Shown here piece by piece: positions 9,226 through 63,909 of a stretch of 64,000 nt of DNA (position 1 is its first letter; every line of letters begins with the position of its first letter). Under the pieces are notes generated by a model that worked only from the letters and a program-made list of their open reading frames with translations, ran no database searches and was not told where the DNA came from. This stretch comes from an uncultured bacterium (GTDB taxonomy: Bacteria; Patescibacteriota; Doudnabacteria; UBA920): positions 34,915 through 98,914 of the forward strand of contig CAVVMJ010000005.1 of the NCBI GenBank assembly GCA_963749445.1. Direction: 5' to 3'. The translations under genes were made by a program, and so were the position numbers.

Positions 9226-9226
9226 T

Positions 9227-9270: not shown

Positions 9271-9300
9271 CGAGCTGGGTTCAAAACGTCGTGAGACAGT

Positions 9301-38276: not shown

Positions 38277-38400
38277 TAATCGCAAATGTACAAATCAACA
38301 CAAATATACAAATTGCCGCACAGTAGGTTGAAGTTTTGTTTAGGCGTCTACGTTTGATTTGTATATTTGTTAATATTTGTATATTTGCGAACACTACAAT

Positions 38401-39838: not shown

Positions 39839-39863
39839 GAATCCGCATCGGTAAAATAATTTT

Positions 39864-40266: not shown

Positions 40267-40331
40267 AAACTCACAGTTGTGATTTTTATTTCATCTGAAA
40301 TTTGGGTTGAGTTTATTGTCCATGTTTGTGC

Positions 40332-48563: not shown

Positions 48564-49040
48564 ATGAACAATCACAGGTCATACATAGAAGAATTGGCAA
48601 ATAAAGCTTTGGAGAGTGGCGGCTGCACAAAGCCGCCCGTACCAGTAGAGGACATCGCCAAAAAAATTGGTTTGACGGTGGTTATGTTTGATTTCCCCCA
48701 GACAATTTCTGGCGTGTTAAAAAAAGAAAAAAAAGCTATTGGAGTAAATCAAAACCACCACCCGTTGAGAAGAAGGTTCACAGTTTCTCATGAGTTGGGC
48801 CACTTCCTTCTTGGTCATGAAGGATACAAGGACGAAGAATTTATTGATGACAGGTTTGATCGGCCCATCCCTCTGGAGAGGGAGGCTAACCTTTTTGCTT
48901 CTTTTTTGTTAATGCCTAAAAAGTGGGTCGAGGAGAGTATTAAAAAAAATGGTATGGAAATTCCAAGGCTGGCCAAGGAATTCCAGGTTAGTGAGCAGGC
49001 CATGACTATAAGATTATTAGAACTAAACTTGATAAAATAA
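48564..49040 (+). CDS. ImmA/IrrE-family metallopeptidase (DUF955)
   Basis: HELGHFLLGH HEXXH motif. It is adjacent to and co-oriented with the XRE gene, the classic XRE-ImmA module. Confidence 0.75.
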   Translation: MNNHRSYIEELANKALESGGCTKPPVPVEDIAKKIGLTVVMFDFPQTISGVLKKEKKAIGVNQNHHPLRRRFTVSHELGHFLLGHEGYKDEEFIDDRFDRPIPLEREANLFASFLLMPKKWVEESIKKNGMEIPRLAKEFQVSEQAMTIRLLELNLIK

Positions 49041-49087
49041 AACAGCCGCCCTGTAGGGGCGGTTGTTTATAAACCTTTAAAATTAAT

Positions 49088-51505
49088 TTACTTTGGTATA
49101 GGCGTGGCATTTATCTCAAGCACCTTCATCACTTCATCTCCATAATGGTTAATTACCTTTACAGCTATCTTGCCAGTTTTAGGTTTTGGGAATGGACGGG
49201 ATACTGTGGAATATAACTCGTCCCAGGATTCTTCGCTAATATCAGCCTTTAGGGCTTTCTTAAGTTTTTCGTAAGGCTTGTCTGCACCAAGAAAGTAAGC
49301 GTGAGTAATAAAAAACGCTTCGCTGTTATAGTTGGTATCTATGAACCATGCCGCTATTTCGTGTTCTGTATCCCCAGAGCCACTGGAACGAATTTCGCTT
49401 TTGACTGGATCGTAAATATCTACGCCCATTACCTCCACCACCACACCGTCTTTGGTCTCTTTGACTTTTACGTCCGGTTCACCGAAGGCGAGGAATAAGT
49501 TACCTGAACCGGTCTTCTTGAGCAAATCACCCATGGACAAATCCGGATTGATTTTCACTTTCATTATTTGTAATCCATTTGATTGTGTACCTTCTGAAAA
49601 CGCAGAAGCTTCAAATGACGTGGCGGCAACAACTAAAAGATCGGCAAATTTTTTGGCAACTGTAGCGGCGTCACGGATGAAATCGTCATCTACACTACCG
49701 AATTCAGGGCCGATAGAAACCGCCACTTTTTTGAGTCCGTTATTCGTTTTATATTCTCCAACAGCTTGCACTTCTGGACCGCTTGGTAAAATATCCAAAT
49801 TTACAAACTCTACTCGCGCGCCTTTTTCACCAGTTTGTACGCCGGATTTTAAAAGATTACTGACAACAGTTTCCGCAAATCTTTCGGAAGACAACATCTC
49901 CTGTGCGTCAGAAACGCGATGCGGAGAAAGTGATTCAACGGTAAAAGGTCCAGTTACACGAACAACATTTTTATTTTCAGTAGGTTGATCATATAGAATC
50001 TCCTGCTCCGCCGCTTCATCATTGGCAAGCGATTTTAAGGTTATATGAGGCACATTTTTATATTCAAACCCAGCCGAAACAATGTGTTCGTCTATGAGTT
50101 TGTAATATGGAAATTTGGCAGTCATTAAACGAGTCCTTGCGAGGGCCAATGAAACACGCGAAGTATCAATTGTAATCCAGCGTCTGCCCCACTGCTCGGC
50201 TACAAAAGCAGTTGTGCCGGAACCGCAAGTTGGGTCGAGTACAATATCTCCCGGGTCTGTGGTCATTAATAAACATCTTTCCACTACAAAATTTGAGGTT
50301 TCAACAATGTAACTCCTTTGACTTGGTCCATTTGTGTCATACCAAAAATTAGTAATTTTTTGATAAGGAAAATCGGAACTAAACATTGCATAAGAGAGGC
50401 TTTGACCCTCTGACTTTATACGGTCCAATTTTATTAATTTCTCTAATTTATCTTTTTCAACAATCCAACTAAACCCGCGTGGAAAAGAGTACTCCTTACC
50501 TTTAAAACTAATGGAATAATCATTCCCAGAAGAATATCCTGGAGCTCTTAATGAAACTAATCTGTACCAATCACCGCGCTCATCTTTGTTCCACCTTGAT
50601 TTATTATCCGGGATATACTCTTGATAAAGTTGTCTATATTTTAACCTTTCTTTATCTTTTCCATACCAAATGATAAAATCATTCATTGTATCTAAATATT
50701 TAGCACCTAATGGCATTGTTTTTTTTCTAAATGGAATTAGCGAGACAAAATTATCTGGACCAAAAACTTCATCTATTACATTTCTAACAAGATGAACATT
50801 TTCCTCGTTGATTTGAACAAAACAACTTCCGCTCTCAGTTAACAGCTCGCGCACCACTAATAGACGATCTCGTAAATAAGAAAGGTAGGAATGGATTCCA
50901 AGTTCCCATGTATCACGAAAAGCCTTAACCTGCTCGGGTTGACGGATAAAATCCTCCAATTTATTGTCTTTCACATCTCGGTTACGTGTGGATACCTGCC
51001 AATTGGAACCAAACTTAATACCATACGGTGGATCAATATAAATTGTTTGCACCCTACCGCGCATTCCCTCTTTTTCCAACAAACTATTCATCACAAGTAG
51101 TGAATCACCCAGAACCATCCGATTCTGCCAATTGTCCTCGTGCTTGTAAAAATCTACGGCTTTGCTAAATTGCGCTTCGGCCGTTTCACCAAAAAGCATC
51201 TGCTGTGAATTATCACTGGTACCTGCTTTGAGACGAGCAATAATTGCCTCGGGTGCTATTTTTTCCTGTACATAAATAGGTACCGTTGGCACGGCAAACT
51301 CGGTTCCTTGTTCTTGTTTTCCAGCCCAAACAAGCTGGGGGTCAAGCGACGGATCGTAAGCATAATGCGTTTTTACTGGCTGTTTATCACGGGCAGAAAG
51401 TTTAACGGATTCTTCTTGCGTAGGAATACGTACGCGTTTGGCGTCATGCGTGTATGATTTTACGGGTGCGGCGGTAGTTGGTTGTGATATTTTTTTCTTT
51501 GGCAT
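49088..51505 (-). CDS. mod: Type III restriction-modification N6-adenine DNA methyltransferase (Mod-like, beta class) with an extended C-terminal region
   Basis: YIDPPYGIKF (motif IV) precedes DPTCGSGTT (motif I), the permuted beta arrangement. There are about 370 aa after motif I. Confidence 0.8.
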   Translation of the reverse strand: MPKKKISQPTTAAPVKSYTHDAKRVRIPTQEESVKLSARDKQPVKTHYAYDPSLDPQLVWAGKQEQGTEFAVPTVPIYVQEKIAPEAIIARLKAGTSDNSQQMLFGETAEAQFSKAVDFYKHEDNWQNRMVLGDSLLVMNSLLEKEGMRGRVQTIYIDPPYGIKFGSNWQVSTRNRDVKDNKLEDFIRQPEQVKAFRDTWELGIHSYLSYLRDRLLVVRELLTESGSCFVQINEENVHLVRNVIDEVFGPDNFVSLIPFRKKTMPLGAKYLDTMNDFIIWYGKDKERLKYRQLYQEYIPDNKSRWNKDERGDWYRLVSLRAPGYSSGNDYSISFKGKEYSFPRGFSWIVEKDKLEKLIKLDRIKSEGQSLSYAMFSSDFPYQKITNFWYDTNGPSQRSYIVETSNFVVERCLLMTTDPGDIVLDPTCGSGTTAFVAEQWGRRWITIDTSRVSLALARTRLMTAKFPYYKLIDEHIVSAGFEYKNVPHITLKSLANDEAAEQEILYDQPTENKNVVRVTGPFTVESLSPHRVSDAQEMLSSERFAETVVSNLLKSGVQTGEKGARVEFVNLDILPSGPEVQAVGEYKTNNGLKKVAVSIGPEFGSVDDDFIRDAATVAKKFADLLVVAATSFEASAFSEGTQSNGLQIMKVKINPDLSMGDLLKKTGSGNLFLAFGEPDVKVKETKDGVVVEVMGVDIYDPVKSEIRSSGSGDTEHEIAAWFIDTNYNSEAFFITHAYFLGADKPYEKLKKALKADISEESWDELYSTVSRPFPKPKTGKIAVKVINHYGDEVMKVLEINATPIPK

Positions 51506-51507
51506 AA

Positions 51508-54500
51508 TTATTCCTTAGTAAATAAATTATCCGGTATGAGGTTATCAAAACCTCTTGCCATACCGGCGCGAATAATATTTTGCGTCTCGTGTATATCCTG
51601 CACTTCAAGGATCGCCCACTTGCCGTATTTACCGATATTATTAATTGCTGGCACCCAAAGATCTTGCGTGGTTTTTATTTTCATCTTTTTTTTATCATCT
51701 TTCTTGCCAGTTACTTCTATAAGCAAATTTAATTTTGATTTATCTGGCATTTCCAGAACAGCTATAAAATCGGGCACATAATGATGAGATATGCCTTGAT
51801 GTTCGTAGGGAATAGTAAAGCCAAGACTTTGATTTTTAACATAAGCAAGAATCTCTGGCATTTGTTCCAATTTTTTAGCAACTCCTTGTTCCCATTCTTC
51901 AGTATCGGCCACCACGTAATTTATGTGGCTCTTAACTGTTTCGCGGACTGGTTTGGTTGTCAAAAAATCTACATATTGAGTGGAGCCCAGAGTATCGTAT
52001 GGTGCGAGAATTGGTAACAGCCTTTTGTCTTTTTGGTCTTCTAGATTTTCAGCAATAATGGCTTGTTGGATTTTAGTTAGAGCACCAGAGAAATATTCGC
52101 CAATGGAGAGGTAGCCTATGACCATTCGATCCTTTAAAACTACATACTTTTTGACATATTCCTCGGCAATTTTGCGCAATTGCGGGGTGAGCCAATATTT
52201 TTCGTTGCCTTCGGCATCGGTATAGTATCGTTTAAGAAGCGCCTGCGTGAGGCGGATGATTACTTCACCATCGCGACGTTCTCTAATCTTTTCTAAATTT
52301 TCTTTGACTTCCTCGCCGATTACGCCGCTACTTGTAACCTCAGTCGGTTCATTTTCAATAATAGTTTTTGATTCTTCAGAAAAACGGGCGATAAGTTTGG
52401 TCTCGTTGAGTTCGTAACGATAACCGTCGACACGCGGGTAGGTAATTTCGTATTGTTCACGGTCAGGGAGCGCATGGACACGATGAATGACTTTAGGCGG
52501 TTGTGGTGGCGTATTACCCTCGGCTTTTAGGAAGCTAAACGGTACGCCATAGACTTCGGCATATTCCGGCGTAAATTTTTCTATACCGTCTTCGGGATCA
52601 ATGGTAGTTGAATAATCTACCCGGCGCAGAGCGCGACCGACGACTTGCTCGCAAAGAAGTTGAGTAGAAAATGCGCGTACACCAAGAACATGAGTCACTG
52701 TGTTCACGTCCCAACCTTCCGTAAGCATAGAAACGGAAACAACGCATTTGATATCTTCTCCAAGCTTTCCAGGTTTGCCCACTGTGTTCATTATCTCACG
52801 TAGAAGCTCCTCGTCTGTCGGTTCGTCCCGCCCAGGGAAACGCTTGCGGTAATCTTTATGAAAGTCCTCAATTTCTTTAGTAAAAATTTGTTTAAAATCA
52901 TCGTTAACTTTTTCTCCACTTTCAATCTGAGCACTGTCAATAATGAGGGTGTTTGGACGATCGTAAAACCGCACACCATCTTCATTGCGAAATATATCCA
53001 AATTTCCCTTTTCAATCTTAAATTGACCACTGGCAGTTTCCCGTTCATAGCCAGCAATCCAACGATAAACCAATTCCGATACAGCGGTGTTGTTGCATAC
53101 GACTATCATAACCGGAGGCATGACATTTCGATCGTCTTTTTTATGTTTTAGGTACGGTTGATAGTATTTCTTATCGTAATTTCCGTATAGAGATTCCAAG
53201 GCCTCTTGCAATTTAGTTGGCAAAGTATTTGACGATAAATAATCCTTCCCGCCAGTCTTTAGTCCCTTTTTGGGCAAATCATCCCGGACATGAAGCCACA
53301 AATTTCTGAATTCCGGTTCATCATCTTTTGAGACGGTATCTGATTCAATCGGAAGTCGAGGAATTTTTACAATACCGCATTCTAAAGCGTCCAAAAGTGA
53401 AAAATCATAAATTGCCCACGGGAACATAGTGCCTTCCTGATAGCCGGAACCACGCAAAAAATAAGGCGTCGCCGAAAGATCAATTACCGCATTAACATTA
53501 ATTTTCTTTGCCAATGCTTCAATACCACTAATCCATACGCGGGCCGCTTTATTGTTTTCGTCTGCTTCTTTCCTCTCTTCTCCGGACAATTTTTCCTCGC
53601 TTGGCTTTTCGCGATAACAGTGATGAGCTTCATCATTGATTACCAAAACTCGTGGTTTACCTAAAACACTTTTGAATGCACGATTAACCATCGCGTTTGG
53701 AGTTTCTTTGATAGCTTCTTCTTTTAATAATCCTGTCGCTTTCATAACCGCGCCGACTTGGAATCGTGGGTTTTGTCTTAGTTCAAGCTGATGAAAGTTT
53801 GTAATAAAAACAGTGGCTTGTTGCAGCAAATCAAAATCTTGATATGAAACTATATCGCGTTCACGATAATAATTTTTTGGGTCGTTTGGCAAAAGAACAT
53901 TTAAGCGGTCGCGAATAGTAATGCCCGGTGTGATTATCACAAATGCGTCAGTAAATCGAGTATCTTGAGGATAACGAATTTTGTTAAGTGTATGATAGGC
54001 AATAATCATTGCCATGACGACCGTCTTCCCGGAGCCAGTTGCCATTTTAAAAGCCAAACGGTACAGACCGGGATTTGCATCTGTGTTGGCTTTTTTTAAT
54101 TCATTGATAATCCAATTTTCACCAGATTTTTCTGCCACCTCATTAATGTATATCAAAGTCTCCAGCGCTTCTATTTGGCAGAAAAAAAGTTTGTTTTCCC
54201 TAGTTTCATCACGCCAATAAGAAAGTAGATCGCGGGATGTTTTAGTAATACCTGAATATTCCGACCCTCGCCATTCTTTTATTTTTGCTCTGACTTTATT
54301 TATAAACTCGTTTTCTTTTTGAAGTTCAGTACCGAAAGCGCCGTCGGCAATATTTAAGTCGAGCTGTTTTTGTTTGGTTTTAGCCCTGGGAACGGGAATA
54401 TAAAAGCTGCTCGGGCGACGAGTATCTAATATTTCATCAGTGATCCCGCGGTCATCTGCCTTGAAATGGCGACTGGGTTCAATATATGGCGAGTTTAAAA

Positions 54501-54552
54501 TTGGATTTTTCATGAGGGGTGTGACAATGTAAAACTGACTTAATTTTAGCAC
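51508..54552 (-). CDS. res: Type III restriction enzyme Res subunit (SF2 DEAH helicase plus C-terminal PD-(D/E)XK nuclease)
   Basis: ATGSGKT Walker A, VINDEAHH DEAH box, MLTEGWDVNTVTHVLG motif VI, and C-terminal YVPDFIAV...EVTGKK nuclease motif. It lies upstream of mod, which is an unusual order. Confidence 0.8.
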   Translation of the reverse strand: MLKLSQFYIVTPLMKNPILNSPYIEPSRHFKADDRGITDEILDTRRPSSFYIPVPRAKTKQKQLDLNIADGAFGTELQKENEFINKVRAKIKEWRGSEYSGITKTSRDLLSYWRDETRENKLFFCQIEALETLIYINEVAEKSGENWIINELKKANTDANPGLYRLAFKMATGSGKTVVMAMIIAYHTLNKIRYPQDTRFTDAFVIITPGITIRDRLNVLLPNDPKNYYRERDIVSYQDFDLLQQATVFITNFHQLELRQNPRFQVGAVMKATGLLKEEAIKETPNAMVNRAFKSVLGKPRVLVINDEAHHCYREKPSEEKLSGEERKEADENNKAARVWISGIEALAKKINVNAVIDLSATPYFLRGSGYQEGTMFPWAIYDFSLLDALECGIVKIPRLPIESDTVSKDDEPEFRNLWLHVRDDLPKKGLKTGGKDYLSSNTLPTKLQEALESLYGNYDKKYYQPYLKHKKDDRNVMPPVMIVVCNNTAVSELVYRWIAGYERETASGQFKIEKGNLDIFRNEDGVRFYDRPNTLIIDSAQIESGEKVNDDFKQIFTKEIEDFHKDYRKRFPGRDEPTDEELLREIMNTVGKPGKLGEDIKCVVSVSMLTEGWDVNTVTHVLGVRAFSTQLLCEQVVGRALRRVDYSTTIDPEDGIEKFTPEYAEVYGVPFSFLKAEGNTPPQPPKVIHRVHALPDREQYEITYPRVDGYRYELNETKLIARFSEESKTIIENEPTEVTSSGVIGEEVKENLEKIRERRDGEVIIRLTQALLKRYYTDAEGNEKYWLTPQLRKIAEEYVKKYVVLKDRMVIGYLSIGEYFSGALTKIQQAIIAENLEDQKDKRLLPILAPYDTLGSTQYVDFLTTKPVRETVKSHINYVVADTEEWEQGVAKKLEQMPEILAYVKNQSLGFTIPYEHQGISHHYVPDFIAVLEMPDKSKLNLLIEVTGKKDDKKKMKIKTTQDLWVPAINNIGKYGKWAILEVQDIHETQNIIRAGMARGFDNLIPDNLFTKE

Positions 54553-54559
54553 TTTTTGA

Positions 54560-54648
54560 GAAAATAATCACTTCACAGAGATGGCCTTTGAATGTTATAC
54601 TTTAGGTACAATTTATGCCTAAACTTTGGGGAAACCCGGGGCATGGCG
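54560..54648. repeat. 89-bp inverted repeat, left copy (IR-L). Its partner lies at 61893..61981
   Basis: GAAAATAATCACTTCACAGAGATGGCCTTTGAATGTTATACTTTAGGTACAATTTATGCCTAAACTTTGGGGAAACCCGGGGCATGGCG versus the reverse complement of 61893..61981. There are a handful of mismatches. Confidence 0.6.
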
Positions 54649-54788
54649 CAGAAAAACGAGAAAAACATAAAGACGGTCATCTGTCTTGCTTTACGTTTTT
54701 CTCGTTACCAGCCGAAAGGTTGGTAGACCCGCAAGGGTCGGGCAAGCGGGTGGCCCTTTTTGTTTGCCCGCGGAAAGACCAATCAGCC

Positions 54789-55817
54789 ATGAAAAAAATA
54801 ATTGTGTTAAGTTTTCTTGTTACGTTACTGGCTGCGGCTTGCAACAAGGCTGTCACTAAAAATGGCGAGGCGTCTCAGCCCCAAAAGCCAACGCAAACTC
54901 AAGCGGCAACTTCCACAACCCAAACCGCGACGACCACTTCAGGTTCTGACAACTTTGCCCCCGAGCCTTACACAATAGACTCAGTCAACAAATTGGCTGC
55001 CAAATTGGCTGCCAAGAACGGAGGCAACGCCGCAACCCCAACTAAAGCAACGCCTGCTCCAGTAACCGAACAAGACTTTCGTAGTCAACTTACAGCCTTG
55101 TATCAAGAAAAGATAGGCTTTTTGGATGATAAAATAAAAACTTGGAAACTTACAAAATTTGCGATCGGCTTAGGCATCGACCAAAGCAATAAAGATATTT
55201 CTTTCTACAATCAAAATTGTACTGATACGGGCTATTGCGACCCATATGCCGTTAAAATGTCCCAGTTAGAGCTTGACGAGGATACAAAGTTTTCTGGAAT
55301 TTGGCAAAGCCGCATTGACCAAGGGAGTCAAATTGAACAAAAGTTGAATGACGAATTGACTGCGCTAAACGCAGACAACTCCACGGTACCGCAAGCCGAG
55401 TACGCTCTCCGGCAGAACGAGCTAAACACTCTAGTTAATGAATCCGACATTGAGCAGGCCGACGCTTCCATTAACCAAGCAACTTACTTCACAGCAGACA
55501 AAAAGGCTGAAATTGATAATACAATTTTGTCTCATGCACAAACCGCCAAGGCATGGGCAGACCAACAGCTTGCGACAATCAACGCCGAAGCTCAAACGGC
55601 CGCGCAAAACATTCCGCCAATAGTTACGGCGCCAATAACCACGGTCCCGATTCAGCCGACATCAATCCATTGCAACACCACTGCGGACACACAGATGGGG
55701 TTCCCTAAGAGTGAGACGGAGTGCACGGAGTTTCCGACAATGAAGACGATGGTCTGTAACACTTCCACTTCTGGGTACGGGAGCCTGCAAAAGGATTGTT
55801 ACTTTATAAATCAGTAA
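54789..55817 (+). CDS. Lipoprotein (signal peptide plus LAAAC lipobox), low-complexity Thr/Gln/Ala-rich
   Basis: MKKIIVLSFLVTLLAAAC. The start is chosen at the internal Met. The ORF-track start 54615 lies inside IR-L. Confidence 0.45.
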   Translation: MKKIIVLSFLVTLLAAACNKAVTKNGEASQPQKPTQTQAATSTTQTATTTSGSDNFAPEPYTIDSVNKLAAKLAAKNGGNAATPTKATPAPVTEQDFRSQLTALYQEKIGFLDDKIKTWKLTKFAIGLGIDQSNKDISFYNQNCTDTGYCDPYAVKMSQLELDEDTKFSGIWQSRIDQGSQIEQKLNDELTALNADNSTVPQAEYALRQNELNTLVNESDIEQADASINQATYFTADKKAEIDNTILSHAQTAKAWADQQLATINAEAQTAAQNIPPIVTAPITTVPIQPTSIHCNTTADTQMGFPKSETECTEFPTMKTMVCNTSTSGYGSLQKDCYFINQ

Positions 55818-55834
55818 GATTTTAAGAAAAGCCT

Positions 55835-56008
55835 ATGAAAAAATTATTAGCGATGATGAAGTCCAAACCCGGGGAAACGCCGGAGCGATTTGCACAGCGA
55901 GTTCAACAGAGCTTGAAAGAACGCGGATTGCTGGACGAACAGGGTAAACTAAAAGATTCCCAAAAAGAATACGAGGAATGGCTTCGGCGCGTATTTGGTC
56001 TTAAATAA
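55835..56008 (+). CDS. Small hypothetical protein (57 aa)
   Basis: ORF MKKLLAMMKSKPGETPERFAQRVQQSLKERGLLDEQGKLKDSQKEYEEWLRRVFGLK between two lipoprotein genes. Confidence 0.25.
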   Translation: MKKLLAMMKSKPGETPERFAQRVQQSLKERGLLDEQGKLKDSQKEYEEWLRRVFGLK

Positions 56009-56050
56009 AGCCAGCGGGTAGCTCTTTGCCCGCAGAAAGTTGAATTAAAA

Positions 56051-56524
56051 ATGAAAAAAATATTATTTGCTTTGCCCTTAATAGTTTTATTAGCCGCTGG
56101 ATGCAACTCAAACTCTGACCAAGTCAGTCAGCTTCAACAACAAAACCAGAAACTCCAAAATCAAATTAACGACATGAACCTCGACGCACAAAGCAAATGC
56201 GCTGACCAGGCGGCCAAAGTTTTTAAGCAGGAAGACTCAACCCCGCAAGTATTTGATAACTACACTGACCACTGGAACAAGAGCATAAATAAGTGTTTTA
56301 TCTTGATGACTTTTAACCAAAACGGCGGCCAGATGACTGACGAAGAATTGATGGATGCTTTTGGGGGCCAGACCTACGGGTCGTATTGGTCTTCTATTAG
56401 CTCGGATTTAAGCAAGAAGAGCCTGGGTTGCAACGTCTACCCGGACGGCACAAATACCAATAGCCAAACATGTACTTCCCAAGAACAATTTGATAGTTTG
56501 GTTAAGCCTTTTATGACTAATTAA
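56051..56524 (+). CDS. Lipoprotein (LLAAGC lipobox), Gln-rich
   Basis: MKKILFALPLIVLLAAGC signal/lipobox. Confidence 0.45.
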   Translation: MKKILFALPLIVLLAAGCNSNSDQVSQLQQQNQKLQNQINDMNLDAQSKCADQAAKVFKQEDSTPQVFDNYTDHWNKSINKCFILMTFNQNGGQMTDEELMDAFGGQTYGSYWSSISSDLSKKSLGCNVYPDGTNTNSQTCTSQEQFDSLVKPFMTN

Positions 56525-56660
56525 AGAAATGCCCTTCCCTTGGCCTTTTGGGTTTTAAACTTGTTTATATAGCAATTGGCTGTTTCTGGGGGCTTCCGTG
56601 GGCAAAGGAAAACACTGAGGAATATGCCCCGTGTTTTTTGACGACAAAAAGTGGTAGAAT

Positions 56661-57284
56661 ATGGTTATGGAAATTAGCAAGAATCATTTGCGTAGTTTAG
56701 ATAGCTTTATTTTGCGGGGAAAATACATATTAACTGCTTGGCCCTCGGAAAGGGACGAGCGATTTAACAAGTGGCTAGGTGAATTACGAGTATTCATACA
56801 TGATTTAGGGGAAGGTTATTATAAGATGTTTACTGATGTAGAGAAAGAAGCCGCTAGTACTTCCAGAGGCGTGGCTGAACTTAAAGTCCCTATAATACTT
56901 AATTTTTTACGCCCTTTAAGAGAGTCCTTGTTGCACAAGTCTAATACAACAAAAGTACCGACTAATTTAAACTCCAAAACCGAAATTAGCATTGGTAAAC
57001 TAACCTCGCATACGGACGGATCCATACGATATGATGGGAATTTCATACGTATGCCTAATCAGCAAAAAGATTTGTGCCGTCTTTTTATGAATAAACCTGA
57101 AAAACTAGTTACCATAGATAGGATTAGAGATGAATTGATACGGGCTGACCGCAGGAAGGAAACAACATTTGCCACAATATCTAAATATGTCAGTAAACTT
57201 CGCAATGTCTTGAAAAATTATTACAAAACGAATGTGCTAATCAACCAGCAAGAAGAAGGCTGGTACTTCCGCCCTCCAAAATAA
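56661..57284 (+). CDS. Putative DNA-binding protein with C-terminal OmpR/PhoB-type winged helix
   Basis: C-terminus QQKDLCRLFMNKPEKLVTIDRIRDELI...ISKYVSKLRNVL...GWYF. Confidence 0.4.
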   Translation: MVMEISKNHLRSLDSFILRGKYILTAWPSERDERFNKWLGELRVFIHDLGEGYYKMFTDVEKEAASTSRGVAELKVPIILNFLRPLRESLLHKSNTTKVPTNLNSKTEISIGKLTSHTDGSIRYDGNFIRMPNQQKDLCRLFMNKPEKLVTIDRIRDELIRADRRKETTFATISKYVSKLRNVLKNYYKTNVLINQQEEGWYFRPPK

Positions 57285-57550
57285 CTTATTCATATGTGAA
57301 AAGTGAATGAATTGACCCCTCTACAATAGAGAGGTCTTTTTAATTATGGAAGTTATTTATGCAGTTGAGCCAGAGCGACCTCGAGGAGTTCAAACAAATA
57401 TATAAGGCCGAAACCGGCCTAGAAATTACGGATGCCGAAGCCGTCGAGCTTGGCAATCGGCTTTTAGGATTGGTTAAATTTGTCCTCTCCGATGACAGGC
57501 CTCCATAATTTAACTTAGCTTTAAGTTTCATTTAACATTAATTTTATTTT

Positions 57551-57766
57551 ATGAACAAAAACTTAACGATGAGAGAAGTTATAAGACAACAAACTGACGC
57601 GTTTATGAAAAAAGTTTGGGATAACCATAAGGCACTTCAGGAGGAAATCCCGTGCGAAGTCAAATTAACCTTCCAATTTGTGGATTCTAAACAAGCCCTC
57701 ACACAATATAAAATCTTGAAATATGACGGCGCAGATGATGAGGATGACGATTACGATTTTATTTAG
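57551..57766 (+). CDS. Small hypothetical protein with acidic tail
   Basis: 71 aa ending DGADDEDDDYDFI. Confidence 0.3.
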   Translation: MNKNLTMREVIRQQTDAFMKKVWDNHKALQEEIPCEVKLTFQFVDSKQALTQYKILKYDGADDEDDDYDFI

Positions 57767-57796
57767 ACTAACATAAATATTATTAACTAAAAAATT

Positions 57797-59125
57797 ATGC
57801 CAGACTCTCAACCAGCAAAACGACAATACACCAAACGCAAAACGGAGGAAAAGGACAAATCTGTAATGGCGGTATCACTTGTAACGCCGGATCATCTTAT
57901 TGAAACCATTTATGACCCCCAGCTCGATATGACTAGCTATGCGGTTTTTGTCCGTCAAACCGGCAAGTGCGAACGCCACGATCAGTTCATTTATAAATCC
58001 ACGACCTACGTTCCACCCGACCGAAACAACCCTCTGGTTAAAAAAGGCTTCGTCCTTCTGGCGTCCCGGCCCAGGCCTTTAATGGAAACGGCTACGCTCT
58101 TAGAGGAAATACGCAAGTTCGTTTCTGATTACCTGACTGTCAGCCCGGAGTTTGAGGAAATCATTCCGTACTTCGTCCTGCTGACCTGGATTTACGACCG
58201 CTTTGACACCGTGCCGTACCTTAGGGCTTTGGGCGACATGGGCAGAGGCAAATCCCGCCTCCTGTTCGTCATGACCGCCTTAAGTTACAAAGCGTTTTTG
58301 GCCAATGGTGCCGCAACAGTCTCCCCGATATTTCGCATACTGGACTCCTGGCACCCGACCTTGATTTTGGACGAAGCCGACTTTAACCGAGCAGATGAGA
58401 AGAGCGAAATTATGAAGATATTCAACAGCGGCTTCGCAAAAAACACCCCGGTCTTACGGAGTGAAGATGACGGCAAGGGCGGATTTACTGTGCGGGCATT
58501 TGACGTCTACGGCCCCAAGATATTCGCTTCCCGCCATCAGTTTGGCGACGACGCTTTGGAAAGCCGTTGCTTTACCCACGACATGGACATGATTGAAAGA
58601 ACATCAAACGTACCGATAAACCTCGACGACAATTTCCGCCAGCGTGGCCTAGAGCTACGCAATAAACTGCTGACTTGGCGATTCCACAACTTTGGCAAAA
58701 TAGAGATCAATCCAAAGCTGACCGACCCGCGCGTAACTGACCGGCTCAACCAAATTTCTTTACCCCTAAAAAGCATCGCTCTGGCAGAGGAAGCCCGCAA
58801 AAAGATTGAAGGTGTAATTTACAGCCTGCACTTGGACATGATTGATTCCCGTGGACTCTCGTGGGACGCAGGGGTATTGCACGCAATTATTACACAAATT
58901 ACCGGCTTAATTGACCCCGAGGAAATAACCGTCAAGATGATTGCCGAGGAATATAACAAAGAGGCGGATGACAAAGACAAACTAACCAACAATAAAGTTG
59001 GCTGGATTTTACGGAAGAAGCTCAAAATAAAAACCGTCCGCCGGGGAGCGGGTTTTACATTGGTTTATGACGACGCTACAAAGCAACGTCTTGAACAACT
59101 AAAGCTAAAATACGGACTGACATAA
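57797..59125 (+). CDS. P-loop NTPase resembling phage/plasmid primase-helicase C-terminal (P4/D5-like) replication proteins
   Basis: Walker A-like GDMGRGKS and Walker B-like LILDEADF. Confidence 0.45.
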   Translation: MPDSQPAKRQYTKRKTEEKDKSVMAVSLVTPDHLIETIYDPQLDMTSYAVFVRQTGKCERHDQFIYKSTTYVPPDRNNPLVKKGFVLLASRPRPLMETATLLEEIRKFVSDYLTVSPEFEEIIPYFVLLTWIYDRFDTVPYLRALGDMGRGKSRLLFVMTALSYKAFLANGAATVSPIFRILDSWHPTLILDEADFNRADEKSEIMKIFNSGFAKNTPVLRSEDDGKGGFTVRAFDVYGPKIFASRHQFGDDALESRCFTHDMDMIERTSNVPINLDDNFRQRGLELRNKLLTWRFHNFGKIEINPKLTDPRVTDRLNQISLPLKSIALAEEARKKIEGVIYSLHLDMIDSRGLSWDAGVLHAIITQITGLIDPEEITVKMIAEEYNKEADDKDKLTNNKVGWILRKKLKIKTVRRGAGFTLVYDDATKQRLEQLKLKYGLT

Positions 59126-59438
59126 CCCCACCAGTGAATCAGTGAATCTCGTGAACCTCCCTTGGAGGATATATACTTGTAAGCCTATATGTCTCCGTGT
59201 TTTAATTTATTTGGGAGTTTTTGAAATATTAAACAAAGAAAAATAATATGACGAGCGTCCAAAAAAATAAGTTAATTAAAGTAGCTAAAAAGTTGCTTTG
59301 GGGGTTGAGTGAAGAAATTGCGGCTAAGGTCGATGCCGCAATGCCGACGGCCACGGAAAAGGAAAGGGAGACGGCTGATGAGTTCGTTTGGCAGGAATTA
59401 TTTAGGCAAGCAAAGCTAAAATAATTAACTTCTATGGA

Positions 59439-59903
59439 ATGACTATGGAACAAAAAACACCACAAGCCAACCAATTTACCGGCGATCCCCGGCAGGACAA
59501 GATGTGGGAATATTACATCCAGGGCATCATGCGCGGCCAAAAAAATGCCTTTCAAGCGGCAATACTGGCCGGGTACAGCAAAAGCTATGCCAACGTTATT
59601 ACCATGTTGGGTTGGTTTAAGGACAGGGAGGTTAAATTGAGGCGAGCTGGTTTTTTAAGCAGAGCCGAAGAAGTTTTGGACGAAGCGCTAGAATTGGAAA
59701 CGCACAGACCTGACGGCACGCGCGACATTAACAGCTTAAGGATAAAGGCAGATGTGGCCAAATACGTTACTTCCACGCTGGGCAAGGAATTTTACAGCAA
59801 GCGCACGGAGCTGACGGGCAAGAATGGAGAGCCTGTAATTCCCATTTTAGGGGATTTGAAGGTTCCTGACGGTTCAAGCAATGTTATAAAAGACCAAAGT
59901 TAA
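59439..59903 (+). CDS. Phage terminase small subunit-like protein
   Basis: QAAILAGYSKSYANVITMLGW matches the TerS (Terminase_2/P27-like) HTH signature. Confidence 0.5.
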   Translation: MTMEQKTPQANQFTGDPRQDKMWEYYIQGIMRGQKNAFQAAILAGYSKSYANVITMLGWFKDREVKLRRAGFLSRAEEVLDEALELETHRPDGTRDINSLRIKADVAKYVTSTLGKEFYSKRTELTGKNGEPVIPILGDLKVPDGSSNVIKDQS

Positions 59904-59907
59904 GAAT

Positions 59908-61545
59908 ATGTTAAATCAAACTAAAAAATATTTCATCTATTCCCGAAAGTCTACGGAATCGGAAGAACGTCAAATCCTTTCGATTGATTCCCAAATTAAG
60001 GAGTTGCAGGAGTTGGCCGTCCGGCGTGGCTTTCGGATTGTTAAAATATTCCGGGAGTCTCAATCCGCGAAAGAGCCTGGCCGTCCCGTGTTTGCAAAGA
60101 TGATGGAGGGCATTGCTAACGGCGACGCCAGCGGCATTCTTTGTTGGAAGCTTGACCGCTTGGCTCGTAATTCTGTGGACGCTGGCGCCATAATTTGGGC
60201 GCTCAAAGATAAAGGCATTGAAATAAACACGCCTACACAGAGTTACAGCCATGCCGATGAGAATAGCATTTTGATGTATTTGGAATTTGGGATGAGCCAG
60301 AAGTACATCGACGACTTGTCTAAAAACGTAAAGCGCGGTTTAAAGACAAAAGTCGGGCAGGGTTGGATGCCCGCTTTTGCCCCGATTGGCTACATAAACA
60401 CTCGGCTGGCTGACAGAGGGGTCAACACTATCGTTCCCGACCCCGAACGTTTTCCTTTGGTGCGGCAGGCTTGGGATTTTATGCTTACGGGGCTTTACAC
60501 ACCCCAACAAATTGTTGACAAATTAAACAAGGAGCTTGGTTACCGATCAAGACCGACAAAGAATTGCCCAAGCAGGCCGCTCGGCGACACCACGATTTAT
60601 AGAACTTTCAACAATCCGTTTTATTTTGGAATGTTCCGTTATAATGACCAGCTCTGCGAAGGGCATCACGAACCAATGGTTTCCAAAGCGGAATTTGATC
60701 GCGTCCAAGTGCTTTTGCACAAACGCGAGAACCCTCGCCCCATAAAGTACAGTTTCACCTATGGCGGGTTAATTCGGTGCGCCTGTGGCTTAAGTATAAC
60801 CGCGGAGAAGCGCGTTAAGCACCAGCAAAACGGGAACACGCACGAATACACTTATTACCACTGCACAAAGTCAAAAGTGCCACGCTGTGCCGAGCAATCC
60901 ATTTCAGAGGAGGAGTTGGAGGCCGAAATCGACAGGGTAGTGTCGGAGTTGGAAATCTCGCCGAAATTTCGGGACTGGGCTTTTTCCAAACTTCAAAAAA
61001 TGAATGAGCAAGAATCGGCCGGGCGGCGGGAGTTGTTAGCCCGTCAACGCAAGGCTTACGATGAATGTTTAAAAAAGATTGACGGGCTGATAGAAATGCG
61101 CGCGGCTAAGGAGATTGGCGCGGAGCAATTTAAAAGCAGGAATGACGCCTTACTTGCTGAAAAGGGGCGGCTGAACGAGGCATTAAACGGCACGGACGAG
61201 TTGGTTTCCGACTGGGTAAAAAAAGCCGAAGCCGCTTTTGATTTTGCTACTCTGGCTAGGAAACGTTTTGTTAAGGCAAGTCCGGAAAAGCGTCGTGAGT
61301 TTGTTGCGGCTATGTCCGAACCTTCGAACCTCATTTTAAATAACAAAACACTCGATTTTATAAAGAGTAGTCCGCTGTTTGTGATTAAAAAAGCCGTAAA
61401 GGGCCACAAGGAAGTTAAGCCAACCTTCGAACCTCTTTTTAATACGGCGGACAAACGTAAAGGCCACCCTTTAGGGGTGGCCAATTCACGATGGCTCGGG
61501 AGGTGGGATTCGAACCCACGACCCATCGGTTACACCTACCCTTAA
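59908..61545 (+). CDS. Large serine recombinase (resolvase catalytic domain, recombinase domain, zinc ribbon)
   Basis: YSRKSTESEERQILSIDSQ catalytic serine region, DRLARN, and a C-terminal Cys cluster CACG...HC...C. Its 3' end runs into the tRNA 3' exon. Confidence 0.8.
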   Translation: MLNQTKKYFIYSRKSTESEERQILSIDSQIKELQELAVRRGFRIVKIFRESQSAKEPGRPVFAKMMEGIANGDASGILCWKLDRLARNSVDAGAIIWALKDKGIEINTPTQSYSHADENSILMYLEFGMSQKYIDDLSKNVKRGLKTKVGQGWMPAFAPIGYINTRLADRGVNTIVPDPERFPLVRQAWDFMLTGLYTPQQIVDKLNKELGYRSRPTKNCPSRPLGDTTIYRTFNNPFYFGMFRYNDQLCEGHHEPMVSKAEFDRVQVLLHKRENPRPIKYSFTYGGLIRCACGLSITAEKRVKHQQNGNTHEYTYYHCTKSKVPRCAEQSISEEELEAEIDRVVSELEISPKFRDWAFSKLQKMNEQESAGRRELLARQRKAYDECLKKIDGLIEMRAAKEIGAEQFKSRNDALLAEKGRLNEALNGTDELVSDWVKKAEAAFDFATLARKRFVKASPEKRREFVAAMSEPSNLILNNKTLDFIKSSPLFVIKKAVKGHKEVKPTFEPLFNTADKRKGHPLGVANSRWLGRWDSNPRPIGYTYP

Positions 61546-61821
61546 ATTTCTTTAAGGAGTGGACTATATCATCATCCTGTCTGGCTCGTCATGTGGGATT
61601 CGAACCTAAAGGATGCGAGGCGCTTCCCATCCGCCTATGGCGGAAAGTACTCCCGTAAAGGGATAGTCTCTGAACCTTCCCCAAAAGTTGGGGCTTGGCT
61701 GCTGATTGCCATTTTAAAGGCTTCCAGCAATTCACCTCGTGTTTCCATTCTCAATTACTTGAGAAGGCTGCAACTTATGTATTACAGCCGATTGCTCTAC
61801 CGCTGAGCTACTCCCGAACGA
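61497..61821 (-). tRNA. tRNA-Asn (anticodon GUU) interrupted by an approximately 250-nt group I intron in the anticodon loop
   Basis: 5' exon TCGGGAGTAGCTCAGCGGTAGAGCAATCGGCTGT (61821..61788). 3' exon TAACCGATGGGTCGTGGGTTCGAATCCCACCTCCCGAGCCA (61537..61497). The acceptor strands TCGGGAG/CTCCCGA pair. The intron guide GCAGCC pairs with exon GGCTGT with a terminal U:G. The intron ends in G and has P7-like AGACTA / ATAGTCC. Confidence 0.6.
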
Positions 61822-61892
61822 TTCACTTTCTATGATATCTTAACAGTTTATGCGGTTTTTATCAACCCTTCGCGATTTACTGTACCCAGTTC

Positions 61893-61981
61893 CGCCATGC
61901 CCTGGGTTTCCCCGAGGTTTAGGCATAAATCGTACCTAAAATATAACATTTAAAGGCCATTTTTGTGAAGTGATTATTTTC
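61893..61981. repeat. 89-bp inverted repeat, right copy (IR-R), immediately upstream of the intron-containing tRNA
   Basis: Reverse complement of IR-L. Confidence 0.6.
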
Positions 61982-62037: not shown

Positions 62038-62706
62038 ATGGATTCATTCAAGGAAATTGCTTATAAAGTTTTAAAAAGGGCGCACAGACCGCTTCACAGT
62101 AATAAGATAACCGAAATCGCTTTAGATCGTGGCTGGCTGAAAACTGCCGGTAAAACACCAGCGGCAACCATGAACGCGCAGCTTGTTACGGACATCGGGG
62201 ATAATGGTAATAAGTCAAAATTTATTCAAACGGGAAAATCAACTTTTTATTTACGCAAATATATGAAAAAGCACAAGCATAAGCACCCAAACGGCAACCG
62301 TGGCGTATTGATTAAGGGAATGTCTAAACTTTTGCCTAGCGATATATTAACCGATCCGGTGTTTAAGGAAAGTCTGGAAAAGCTGATGCGGGGCTATGGC
62401 GGCATCTATGCCTTGTATAAAGGTGAAAAACTTTTTTATGTGGGGTTAGCCACAAGTTTGCATGGCAGAGTTAAATGGCACCTTAGAGACAGATTAAAAG
62501 GCAAATGGAATAATTTTAGAATTTTCAGAATTCGCAGAGTAAGATTCCTTAAAGACCTTGAAACTTTAATTTTGAATATCATTATGCCTAAAGGCAATCG
62601 TGCAAAAGGCCATTTAGCCAAGGATGGCGATTTAAATCTTATCTTACGGAAAGTTTTAAGGGAATATGAAACAAGAATAAAACCCATAAGAAAGGCTTTG
62701 AGATAG
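62038..62706 (+). CDS. HARE-HTH (Mrr_N-like winged helix) fused to a GIY-YIG nuclease domain
   Basis: The N-terminus EIAYKVLKRAHRPLHSNKITEIAL is HARE-HTH-like. GIYALYKGEKLFYVGLATSLHGRVKWH is GIY-YIG. The gene is AT-rich. Confidence 0.55.
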   Translation: MDSFKEIAYKVLKRAHRPLHSNKITEIALDRGWLKTAGKTPAATMNAQLVTDIGDNGNKSKFIQTGKSTFYLRKYMKKHKHKHPNGNRGVLIKGMSKLLPSDILTDPVFKESLEKLMRGYGGIYALYKGEKLFYVGLATSLHGRVKWHLRDRLKGKWNNFRIFRIRRVRFLKDLETLILNIIMPKGNRAKGHLAKDGDLNLILRKVLREYETRIKPIRKALR

Positions 62707-62721
62707 AAATTTTATATAACT

Positions 62722-63909
62722 ATGATAGATGAAATAGGCCAATATTTCGACAAAATTGATTTAGATATTAGAAAAAAACCTCAGGGTTATTCTAGATTCA
62801 TGGATCAAAAAGTAACCCCCGATGTTTTGTCTTTTATCAGTGATTGTATTCTCCAATATACCAAAGAAGATAAAAACAGAGAGTTTACGATTAGTGAGAT
62901 ATTTAAGTCGTCCTATTTTGTTCAGGTTGTGACAGAGATTTTTGGCAAACCATCTCCCCTAGACAAAACGACTAAAGCTGAATACGACAAGTTTGCCGGT
63001 CAACCTATTAAGATGTTAGCTTTTTCCAAAGTTCTCTCTGAAAAAGAGAATAGCAAGGCAAATACATATAAGGTAAACGATTTAGAGGTTTTAAAATATA
63101 TCGCATTAAGAGAATTTAACGCTTTCAGATTTATTTACGCATATTTAACTAAAGCCTTAACTGATAGCGGTTTTATTGAACGACTGCAAAAATATAAAGA
63201 AAAGTATGAGCAAGGAAGCTTGATGAAAGAAGACTTTAATGAACTTAAAGATAAATTTTTAAAATTTATCAGGTCTTATACTAATATCAAAAAGGACTAT
63301 GAACCAAAAAGAATATTTATTAAAGTTCTTAATCCTTTTGCTGCAGAAAATCGCATACCCGGAACGGTTGCGGGTAGAATGTCCAAGTTTCCATTTACTT
63401 ATAGTGACTTAATTTATAACAGGATTAATTTCAGAGATACAAAAAAATCCAAAAATGAATCAAGGTCTAAAGCGAATTTTGTTAATCCAAAAGGGACCAC
63501 TTCAGAATACAGAATTGCAAAAGCAAAAAAGATAATCGCTGAGAGATATAATAAATCTAGCGAAGTGAAAGACCAATGGTCTAGGGGTGTTGCAACTCAT
63601 GTCCACCATATATTTCCAAAAGGTGAATTTGCTGAATTAGCAGATTTAACCGAAAATTTAATACTCTTGACCCCAGAGCAACATTTTTCTAAAGCTCATC
63701 CGAATTCACATACTGATAAAATTGATCGGGATTATCAACTTGTCTGCCTTTTAGCAAAGCTAGATAATATCGAAAATTCTATAAAAAATAACGAGAGTAT
63801 ATACTCAAAAGACCAGTTGATAAATGTTATCAATACTGGTCTTAAAACAAGCCTATCGCTTGATACTCCTTTTGGTGAAATAAGAGAAACTATAAAGAAA
63901 GCTTACTAA
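62722..63909 (+). CDS. HNH-motif endonuclease with a large uncharacterised N-terminal domain
   Basis: THVHHIFPKGE...LTPEQHFSKAH HNH signature near the C-terminus. The gene is AT-rich and co-oriented with the GIY-YIG gene. Confidence 0.55.
   Translation: MIDEIGQYFDKIDLDIRKKPQGYSRFMDQKVTPDVLSFISDCILQYTKEDKNREFTISEIFKSSYFVQVVTEIFGKPSPLDKTTKAEYDKFAGQPIKMLAFSKVLSEKENSKANTYKVNDLEVLKYIALREFNAFRFIYAYLTKALTDSGFIERLQKYKEKYEQGSLMKEDFNELKDKFLKFIRSYTNIKKDYEPKRIFIKVLNPFAAENRIPGTVAGRMSKFPFTYSDLIYNRINFRDTKKSKNESRSKANFVNPKGTTSEYRIAKAKKIIAERYNKSSEVKDQWSRGVATHVHHIFPKGEFAELADLTENLILLTPEQHFSKAHPNSHTDKIDRDYQLVCLLAKLDNIENSIKNNESIYSKDQLINVINTGLKTSLSLDTPFGEIRETIKKAY

Follow-up and report, generated by a model that had tools for sequence, protein, structure and literature searches.

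Inverted copies of a LOOT RNA head flank part of a predicted tRNA-targeting recombinase element in a Patescibacteria genome

A 64,000-nucleotide stretch of DNA (hereafter, the window) from an uncultured bacterium of the Patescibacteriota lineage Doudnabacteria (contig CAVVMJ010000005.1 of assembly GCA_963749445.1) contains two long inverted repeats that bracket a 7.3-kb segment with a recombinase gene and a tRNA-Asn gene. The two arms of this repeat, IR-L and IR-R, are two copies of the head of LOOT (Rfam RF03000), an RNA motif, in which a predicted promoter is followed by the first stem-loop, P1. LOOT is intact at the left copy and truncated at the right one. We consider it somewhat better than even (probability roughly 0.58) that the two heads flank part of a larger element that is inserted in the tRNA-Asn gene by its large serine recombinase (LSR), that IR-R is a truncated leftover, and that the arrangement is not a switch.

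The two arms are located as follows.

54543-54648 (core 54560-54648), plus strand: IR-L, LOOT promoter region and stem-loop P1; 92/106 against IR-R, and also assembled in Logan contig L262
61893-61998, minus strand: IR-R, second LOOT promoter and P1 without P2-P4 (truncated LOOT); from alignment and covariance model

A repeat search of the window, followed by pairwise alignment, established that the arms are reverse complements of 106 nt with 92 identical positions (87%). The 89-nt core reported in a preliminary description of this DNA (54560-54648 against 61893-61981) is identical at 81 of 89 positions, so the repeats exist as described there and are somewhat longer. The arms differ at 14 positions (13% divergence), and the longest run without a mismatch is 18 nt. 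The runners-up among inverted repeats in the whole window are local hairpins of only 37-42 nt, and the IR-L/IR-R pair is therefore not a chance match.

IR-L was also recovered in an independent assembly. Logan contig L262 (run ERR10755942) corresponds to window positions 47263-56921 with 99.8% identity and spans IR-L with both neighbours unchanged. A second Logan contig, L140, begins within IR-R at 61950 and extends outward with 100% identity, and the inner junction of IR-R (61892/61893) is covered, among the assemblies retrieved, by the window assembly alone. These last two points leave some room for a misassembly that created one of the arms. However, L262 crosses IR-L intact, the 14 differing positions indicate that the arms are not collapsed copies, and the unique sequence that follows each arm makes sense, being the LOOT body for IR-L and the tRNA promoter for IR-R. 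An assembly artefact is therefore barely credible. The 17 differences between L262 and the window all fall within 1.2 kb of the type III Res gene (52766-53953), which points to strain-level variation concentrated in this predicted restriction gene; a 1-nt indel is present at 54638, in the G/C run of P1 in IR-L.

The identity of the arms follows from the LOOT gene on the left side of the segment.

54572-54601, plus strand: sigma-70-like promoter TTCACA-18-TATACT, TG-extended, in IR-L; consensus match only
54616-54741, plus strand: intact LOOT gene (RF03000); 73.8 bits with Rfam, 80.6 bits with our own model R1
54742-54788, plus strand: post-LOOT hairpin and T-run, then the ribosome-binding region of lipoprotein 1; from folding, and resembling the hairpin and T-run after other LOOTs

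The Rfam search places LOOT at 54616-54739, with 73.8 bits against a gathering score of 46.4 and a match to model positions 1-121. We also built a covariance model, R1, from seven LOOTs, among which 20 of 28 base pairs exhibit double-sided changes (covariation). IR-L consists of about 70 nt of upstream sequence and LOOT positions 1-33, which form P1. Under R1, IR-R scores 25.5 bits, with P1 aligned alone and P2 and P3 deleted. Rfam gives no RF03000 match in IR-R at E<=1, and the gathering score is not reached, so IR-R is a fragment rather than a member of the family. P1 is predicted to be about as stable in IR-R (-14.9 kcal/mol) as in IR-L (-14.1 kcal/mol). The P1 of IR-R has three substitutions (3/33, against 11/73 in the upstream part), and its conserved internal loop is displaced by 1 nt.

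IR-R bears a promoter-like site, TTCACA-18-TATATT, equivalent to that of IR-L, such that both arms have the form TTCACA-18-TATAyT with a TG extension. The preliminary description had called the repeats promoter-bearing, and as a prediction from consensus matches this holds for each arm. LOOT promoters in other elements have in common with IR-L and IR-R only the proximal ~35 nt, so that either arm resembles the other more than it resembles LOOT genes elsewhere. The same description placed IR-L in front of a lipoprotein gene, as is the case, and noted an ATG-containing stretch in this upstream region. The stretch is the 5' end of LOOT (A followed by UGCCUAAAC) and not a start codon; the lipoprotein gene starts at 54789. 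A 38-nt segment precedes both lipoprotein genes of the segment (54763-54800 and 56025-56062) with 79% identity (TTTGCCCGCrGAAAG...ATGAAAAAAATA), and the gene after LOOT in a related locus, L001, is preceded by a similar TTTGCCAGCAGAAAGG.

On the right side of the segment, IR-R faces a tRNA-Asn gene that is interrupted by an intron.

61837-61865, minus strand: tRNA-proximal promoter-like site TTGATA-17-TAAGAT, in the 76-nt unique spacer up to IR-R; layout as at the tRNA-Asn of L001
61784-61817, minus strand: tRNA-Asn(GUU) 5' exon; from sequence and in-silico splicing
61533-61783, minus strand: group I intron in the anticodon loop, after U35; Rfam RF00028, 109.3 bits
61492-61532, minus strand: tRNA-Asn(GUU) 3' exon; from in-silico splicing
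61462-61482, minus strand: predicted terminator-like hairpin directly past the tRNA CCA, inside the LSR coding sequence

The unspliced gene is not called by ARAGORN. When 61817-61784 is joined to 61532-61492, the result is a 75-nt tRNA-Asn(gtt) that ARAGORN accepts and that closely resembles the intron-less tRNA-Asn of L001. Group I splicing requires a 5' exon that ends in U and an intron that ends in G, and both are present here. The Rfam RF00028 match covers 61540-61793 on the minus strand. An intron is found at the same anticodon-loop position of the tRNA-Asn(GUU) in another locus, L127 (3590-4195, minus strand), which was missed by both ARAGORN and Rfam (at the gathering threshold). In L127, the intron encodes an HNH-type endonuclease open reading frame (ORF), and an LSR gene abuts the 3' exon. 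As the preliminary description stated, IR-R is upstream of the tRNA gene, from which it is separated by 76 nt of unique spacer.

Within the intron of the window, a 25-mer (61582-61606, minus strand) agrees at 22 of 25 positions with the 3' end of the same tRNA, and the three differences are acceptor bases. This 25-mer covers the T-loop, the 3' strand of the T-stem, the 3' strand of the acceptor stem and the CCA; it falls at an intron hairpin that aligns poorly to the Rfam model, and the L127 intron has no such 25-mer. Possible readings are a pseudo-attachment site and the relic of another tRNA. The tail of the tRNA-Asn terminator, TTTACGTTTGTCC, is at 61449-61461. The 650-nt gap after rpoD (39850-40270) has three successive hairpins, each followed by TTTATGTTTKT, which resembles the terminator tail TTTACGTTTGTCC.

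The recombinase gene and a block of genes on the far side of IR-L define the element that contains the segment.

59908-61545, plus strand: LSR, whose last ~18 codons are antisense to the tRNA-Asn 3' exon; Pfam, PHROG
46668-49040, mixed strands: genes for proteins of 368 aa (minus) and 124 aa (minus), an HTH_3 repressor-like protein (plus) and a Peptidase_M78/ImmA-like protein (plus); Pfam and homology to L001 genes

All LSR domains score above the Pfam cutoffs (PF00239 Resolvase, 7e-23; PF07508 Recombinase, 3e-10; PF13408 Zn_ribbon_recom, 7e-6), PHROG 95 integrase is matched at 4e-70, and a YSRKST motif is visible at the N-terminus. This three-domain protein of ~500 aa is thus a large serine recombinase. 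Its best matches in NCBIfam are XisF and CcrA/B/C, all far below the cutoffs. The LSR stop codon at 61545 is 13 nt into the intron, beyond the tRNA-Asn 3' exon, so that the recombinase gene runs through this exon on the opposite strand. The closest LSR relatives are 52-60% identical (L001, L122/L123, L124 and L125; the best, 60%), and LOOT is located 2.5-3 kb from the LSR gene in each of these loci. A recombinase gene that adjoins a tRNA gene at one end, which is the mark of a tRNA island, is found in the window, in L001 (tRNA-Asn) and in L122 (tRNA-Trp), where the tRNA on the opposite strand overlaps the LSR 3' end, and likewise in 10 of 12 GTDB loci of Patescibacteria type (LSR identity 27-43%). 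The L124 and L125 contigs stop exactly at the LSR 3' end.

In L001, the last 20 nt of tRNA-Asn are repeated exactly and in direct orientation 10.9 kb to the left (641-660 and 11582-11601), and the limits of the L001 element are defined by this recurrence. Four window genes have homologues inside it: the 368-aa protein (34% identity, 399 aa in L001), the 124-aa protein (33%, 133 aa in L001), the HTH_3 protein (57%) and the Peptidase_M78 protein (73%). Because these window genes at 46.7-49.0 kb are homologous to genes of a repeat-bounded element, we conclude that the window element probably covers at least 46.7-61.5 kb and that IR-L is internal to it. The right end corresponds to the tRNA-Asn 3' end, and IR-R lies beyond the tRNA 5' end; IR-R is therefore outside the element. 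Judged from this homology, the repeats would be neither element termini nor recombinase sites, and a mobile element of at least 15 kb in tRNA-Asn would span IR-L. The features shared with L001 are the LSR, LOOT, the tRNA target and the HTH/M78 block. A module of 207-, 442- and 154-aa genes seemed to be conserved with L001 on the basis of similar gene sizes and was rejected, as no BLASTP similarity was found.

These limits bear on the proposal, made in the preliminary description, of a remnant integrative or phage-like element of 7.3 kb that has the repeats as its duplicated ends, and equally on a transposon-like one. The repeats do bracket recombinase, replication-type and TerS-like genes. However, homologues of L001-element genes are found 5.5-8 kb to the left of IR-L, the recombinase end is the tRNA 3' end within the bracket, and the tRNA resembles a host gene in its 5' exon, intron and proximal promoter. 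Such repeats occur in no relative examined. Reading of the flanks of 54543 and 61998 revealed no short direct repeat, and thus no target-site duplication of the kind that accompanies a transposon with terminal inverted repeats. We consider it extremely unlikely that the repeats are element ends. What stands of the proposal is an integrative, satellite-like element that is driven by an LSR and tied to a tRNA, with its limits elsewhere.

The preliminary description also raised the alternative of a segment that is invertible by recombination between the arms. Such recombination, homologous or by the LSR, would flip the 7.2-kb interior, either now or in the recent past. The tRNA-Asn and the LOOT body (plus its lipoprotein operon) would then change places between two heads that each have a promoter and P1. 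The 106-nt arms are indeed in inverted orientation, the segment between them encodes a serine recombinase, and the homology of both arms ends at one structural border, the 3' edge of P1. Also, the window tRNA-Asn is reversed relative to the rpoD-to-tRNA-Asn synteny of loci L127 and L213. However, the arms are only 87% identical with a longest run of 18 nt, whereas frequent exchange would keep them near-identical, and invertible segments use short, near-identical inverted sites. Because both arms carry the same promoter and P1, no connection between promoter and gene would be altered. The LSR clade is tied to tRNA 3' ends and not to LOOT, IR-L has one orientation in two assemblies (the window and L262), and no convincing inverted LOOT pair was found among ~135 other LOOT loci. 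A simple two-break inversion would also be expected to leave the missing LOOT body (P2-P4) elsewhere, and R1 has no further match in the window at E<=10. The divergence, the single orientation at IR-L and the equal promoters in both arms leave the invertible segment little support, and we regard it, together with the swap that it implies, as quite unlikely.

We therefore return to the reading of IR-R as a leftover, for which the distribution of LOOT elsewhere is informative. LOOT is listed as a "Gene; sRNA" (small RNA) motif of metagenomic origin (Rfam RF03000; PMC7779021, PMC7657543) and derives from the Weinberg/Breaker alignments (Rfam RF03000). No function or genomic association was found for it in the searchable literature, a search outside of which the original 2017 motif supplement lies. 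With a two-gap LOOT pattern, we retrieved 120 metagenome loci and 2 viral loci, 121 of these loci being newly retrieved. A loose P1 pattern, applied to viral contigs, had given mostly chance matches and was replaced by this stricter pattern. All 121 newly retrieved loci contain genuine LOOT, with scores of 43-94 bits. Most LOOT contigs are short, and the whole census comprises ~135 LOOT loci.

An LSR homologue is encoded near LOOT in 32 of the 121 loci. The placement is upstream and divergent in 23 cases, downstream and co-oriented (as in the window) in five, immediately upstream in three and convergent in one. In loci with at least 5 kb on both sides of LOOT, an LSR gene lies within ~4 kb in 4/4. 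In 10 of the 32 loci, the 3' end of the LSR tblastn match has a tRNA (Gly, Tyr, Ser, Asn, His, Thr or Lys) no more than 300 nt away, nine times on the opposite strand. Since all 121 loci are genuine, 32 have a nearby LSR and a tRNA often abuts, LOOT is probably an RNA carried by mobile elements.

Pairs of related loci indicate where in these elements LOOT resides. L148 and L202 are 99.9% identical for 857 nt upstream of LOOT and up to LOOT position +142, and are unrelated from +143. The backbones of L174 and L175 are 91.7% identical, and their similarity ends after the LOOT hairpin and T-run (motif GCTGRCGGSGAGCTTTT; +142 to +152 across both pairs). Because related pairs lose homology directly past this hairpin and T-run, LOOT is placed at the junction of backbone and cargo, and the cargo downstream of LOOT is, by these comparisons, apparently swapped between close relatives. 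Type III Mod/Res genes are often found downstream of LOOT. In one sub-clade of LSRs (L160, L024, L159 and L187; 62-71% identical to the L024 LSR), a co-oriented LOOT lies 36-76 nt past the LSR tblastn match. In L160 (3107-5488), LOOT is followed by a 185-aa gene and then by the target tRNA-Ser, and this order indicates that the LOOT module is able to sit between integrase and attachment site.

Only one other P1-only copy of LOOT, in L209, was found among the ~135 LOOT loci. It is a 45-nt copy with one substitution (98%), 1.5 kb downstream of the full LOOT, in direct orientation and with unrelated flanks. Besides P1, it includes a -10-like box and some bases of the linker, and a helicase-nuclease gene follows it. 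The order in L209 is a reverse-transcriptase gene divergent from the full LOOT (2507-2624), a NucS-like gene, the P1-only copy (4082-4180) and the 1538-aa helicase-nuclease gene. Together with IR-R, this copy would point to copying of the LOOT head as a module. An unusual contig, L205 (Ga0180007_10037273, 1-3622), has ends that overlap exactly over 85 nt inside LOOT, which gives a unit of 3537 bp; it encodes proteins of 57 aa, 360 aa (receiver-like) and 608 aa, and no recombinase or replication gene. Such a unit could be a small circle, or else a cassette with a direct LOOT copy on each side. The 360-aa gene of L205 and the 361-aa post-LOOT gene of L209 were considered as the same cassette, which was rejected because they are unrelated.

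The position of IR-R in front of the tRNA-Asn suggests another possible role, that of a recruited leader. In this case, IR-R would be a selected, functional LOOT head that boosts or regulates tRNA-Asn, with P1 as a 5' stabilizer or a handle for protein binding. The promoter hexamers and an equally stable P1 are kept in IR-R despite three substitutions, truncation has left exactly the promoter and P1, and the L209 copy is an independent instance with a -10-like box before a gene. Moreover, no terminator was found from IR-R to the tRNA. However, a promoter-like site proximal to the tRNA is already present, as it is in L001. The density of substitutions is similar in P1 and in the upstream part, which gives no sign of extra constraint on P1, and the conserved internal loop of P1 is displaced. 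Finally, this feature is found at no other tRNA-Asn locus examined. We consider a recruited leader rather unlikely.

The P1-only copies could also be by-products of a site-specific exchange of LOOT-headed cassettes at or beside LOOT, which would make IR-R a recombination scar. Two independent copies with sharp borders exist (the window and L209), L205 has its terminal overlap inside LOOT and lacks a recombinase gene, near-identical backbones part right after LOOT, and the LOOT module is found in three different positions and orientations within elements. Evidence against this scheme is that the borders of the two P1-only copies differ by ~8 nt and that the common homology breakpoint is the LOOT 3' end (+130 to +160), not the P1 edge; precise recombination at P1 is therefore unsupported. 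In addition, blastn homology that ends at LOOT may reflect only that LOOT is the best-conserved local sequence, L205 could be an assembly of two direct LOOT copies, and no LOOT-specific candidate recombinase was identified. Such a scar is, in our view, very unlikely.

A broader form of the idea is that Patescibacteria harbor a large, undescribed family of serine-recombinase elements that target tRNAs, with LOOT as the hallmark RNA, and that LOOT marks a slot for cargo exchange with specific recombination at or beside LOOT. We regard this as improbable. If it is true, LOOT-headed cassettes of restriction systems, nucleases and lipoproteins would be swapped in a system analogous to integrons and unrelated to them. 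IR-R, the P1-only copy of L209 and the 3.5-kb "circle" of L205 would then be footprints of cassette exchange.

Several observations weigh against our preferred reading, in which IR-R is the truncated leftover of a LOOT head beside a larger LSR element. The truncation of IR-R lies within ~3 nt of the P1 3' edge, and this edge, together with the L209 copy, hints at a function or a specific mechanism over random decay. That IR-R is a leftover or a local duplicate from the turnover of LOOT-headed cargo at a tRNA hot spot is the most likely origin, and one that we infer. A search of the 61 kb to the left, in which 8 mismatches in 25 were allowed, revealed neither a distal attachment site nor a partial tRNA-Asn. 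The direct repeat of a tRNA 3' segment is thus absent from the distal end of the window element, and the sole second copy (22/25) falls on the wrong side, within the intron. The limit of the window element on the left is accordingly given only as lying to the left of 46.7 kb, and the element is at most putatively mobile today. Finally, in L127 and L213, rpoD (preceded by dnaG in L127) is directly followed by a co-oriented tRNA-Asn that carries an LSR element. In the window, dnaG-rpoD (36501-39675, plus strand) is 22 kb from the minus-strand tRNA-Asn and has the opposite orientation. An old rearrangement or inversion of the island around the window tRNA-Asn is possible from this gene order.

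The reading that we favor can be summarized as a series of proposed steps. The LSR would insert the element into the 3' end of a host tRNA-Asn(GUU) gene that contains an intron. We propose LSR-mediated integration because of the layout and the direct repeat in L001; for the window, where the distal site is missing, this step is inferred. The element would provide a replacement tRNA 3' end and a terminator, both from the antisense strand of the C-terminal coding region of the LSR. Its predicted load consists of an ImmR/ImmA-like pair, a type III restriction-modification system, LOOT with the lipoproteins, the winged-helix-turn-helix (wHTH) protein, the 49-aa protein, the P-loop protein, the TerS-like protein and the LSR. 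LOOT, at the head of the cargo region, would be transcribed from a promoter of its own, with the hairpin and T-run and then the operon of two lipoproteins downstream. IR-R would be a decayed or copied LOOT head beside the tRNA-Asn, back-to-back with a type II restriction cassette. If its promoter is active, it would add a 108-nt leader with P1 to the tRNA-Asn precursor, and RNase P would remove this leader.

The remaining genes of the segment and its surroundings are as follows.

49088-54513, minus strand: type III restriction-modification genes, Mod (805 aa) and Res (~1001 aa), divergent from LOOT; PADLOC MTase_III 1e-199 and REase_III, Pfam
54789-55817, plus strand: lipoprotein 1, 342 aa, with signal peptide and lipobox LAAC; from translation, no Pfam family
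56051-56524, plus strand: lipoprotein 2, 157 aa, with lipobox LAAGC; from translation, weak LPAM_1 match
56661-57284, plus strand: 207-aa protein, C-terminus weakly similar to OmpR-type winged helices; Trans_reg_C match at E=1.4e-4, below the Pfam cutoff
57359-57508, plus strand: 49-aa protein, kept just upstream of the replication gene in 5/5 related elements tested
57797-59125, plus strand: 442-aa P-loop replication-type protein; from a homologue search
59439-59903, plus strand: 154-aa predicted TerS-like DNA-binding protein; PHROG 51 E=5.5e-5
62038-63909, plus strand: right flank, divergent from IR-R, with a HARE-HTH/GIY-YIG protein (222 aa) and a type II restriction enzyme (395 aa); Pfam, PADLOC REase_II 2e-102

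The gene inventory in the preliminary description thus proves mostly right: it had listed two lipoproteins, a wHTH protein (here a weak match), a P-loop protein, a TerS-like protein (at the level of profiles), the LSR and the intron-containing tRNA. The 49-aa protein is 29-53% identical to its counterparts in L122, L124, L125, L128 and L129 and was not detected in L001. It belongs to a family of helical proteins of ~45 aa (consensus MQLSxxxLEEFKxIYxAETGxEIxDAxA...RLLxL), for which profile searches gave no family match, and is a candidate directionality factor or regulator. The P-loop protein has at least 788 homologues, mostly from Patescibacteria where named, some of which are fused to Prim-Pol (PF09250) or PriCT_1 (PF08708); it is 27% identical to the equivalent gene product of L122 and L125.

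The label TerS-like for the 154-aa protein is reasonable but weak and derives from profile comparisons. A full HMMER scan assembled a family of 382 members, where a word-index homologue search had found none. The family profile matches the TerS structures 2cmp, 4zc3 and 3zqp at 3e-4 to 1.5e-3, and Pfam Terminase_2 is matched by 11 of 50 members. A single-sequence AlphaFold2 (AF2) model of the protein had a pLDDT of 43, too poor for a fold search. Searches of the element proteins with Pfam and PHROG profiles revealed no capsid, tail or lysis homologues, no LSR relatives were found on viral contigs in our scan, and a scan of JGI metagenomes yielded no relatives of the 222-aa protein. Look-ups of exact proteins returned no record of the LSR or the 395-aa protein and, for the 222-aa protein, only a contig of 1 kb. 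Elsewhere in the window, the 23S rRNA gene (5037-9996) has 4960 nt, compared with a model of 2925 positions, and contains ~2 kb of insertions that include a group I intron (9272-9522) and internal ORFs. Large 23S insertions are typical of rRNA genes in the candidate phyla radiation (CPR). No 16S gene was detected within the 64-kb window.

The repeat itself is a modest curiosity, and the link of LOOT, LSR and tRNA is the more useful result. LOOT gains a genomic context, that is, CPR mobile elements, in which it is located beside a tRNA-targeting LSR and at the border to variable cargo for defence or the cell surface. Its role thereby becomes testable: LOOT may be an element-encoded regulator of cargo, replication or excision. 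The LSR clade, whose ORF extends into the tRNA 3' end and in which a tRNA terminator comes from the LSR coding region, exhibits how islands are built in very small genomes. As integrases with natural tRNA targets, its members may be of interest as a set.

Among known systems, the tycheposons of Prochlorococcus offer a close functional parallel. These elements target tRNA genes and carry a site-specific recombinase, genes of primase/helicase type and cargo, and some variants that resemble phage-inducible chromosomal islands (PICIs) carry terS (bioRxiv 10.1101/2020.12.28.424599). Tycheposon islands arise by repeated integration at a tRNA and contain degenerate remnants, and 910 of 937 tycheposon elements use tyrosine recombinases (bioRxiv 10.1101/2020.12.28.424599). 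The window element is alike in its tRNA target, recombinase, replication genes, cargo, TerS-like gene and remnant-bearing island. It is unlike tycheposons in its LSR, in its host, which belongs to Patescibacteria and not to cyanobacteria, and in its LOOT, as the tycheposon study describes no RNA of this kind; the comparison is one of descriptions.

A similar balance is seen with PICIs and with the Staphylococcus aureus pathogenicity island (SaPI) satellites. Shared with the window element are a size of ~11-15 kb, an integrase at the attachment-site end, an HTH_3 and M78 pair, a replication protein and a TerS-like gene. From the gene set of a PICI, the integrase, the HTH_3/M78 pair and the P-loop protein are present, TerS is represented by weak profile matches, and structural genes gave no matches. 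The differences are the LSR as integrase, the weak TerS assignment and the large cargo of restriction-modification and lipoprotein genes, and the window element is a candidate satellite at most.

The recombinase has the same three-domain architecture as the phiC31/Bxb1-type integrases, the Ccr recombinases of SCCmec and XisF. These enzymes usually target protein-coding genes or intergenic sites. Unlike them, the LSR clade of the window consistently abuts tRNA 3' ends, with an ORF that runs into the tRNA. The Hin/Gin/Cin systems and the shufflons have in common with the window that inverted repeats flank a segment encoding a serine recombinase. They use short (~26-30 bp), near-identical sites and small invertases, and their inversion alters the linkage of promoter and gene. 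By comparison, the window repeats are 106 nt long, 13% diverged and symmetric in promoter content, and the recombinase is a tRNA-linked LSR.

With respect to LOOT itself, the left arm starts a full-length, above-threshold LOOT that has the helices of the family, and the right arm corresponds to its first 33 nt only. The Rfam records describe a metagenomic sRNA, and here it is found in LSR integrative elements at the junction of backbone and cargo. In function, the element is close to tycheposons and PICI-like satellites, from which an LSR, a Patescibacteria host and LOOT set it apart.

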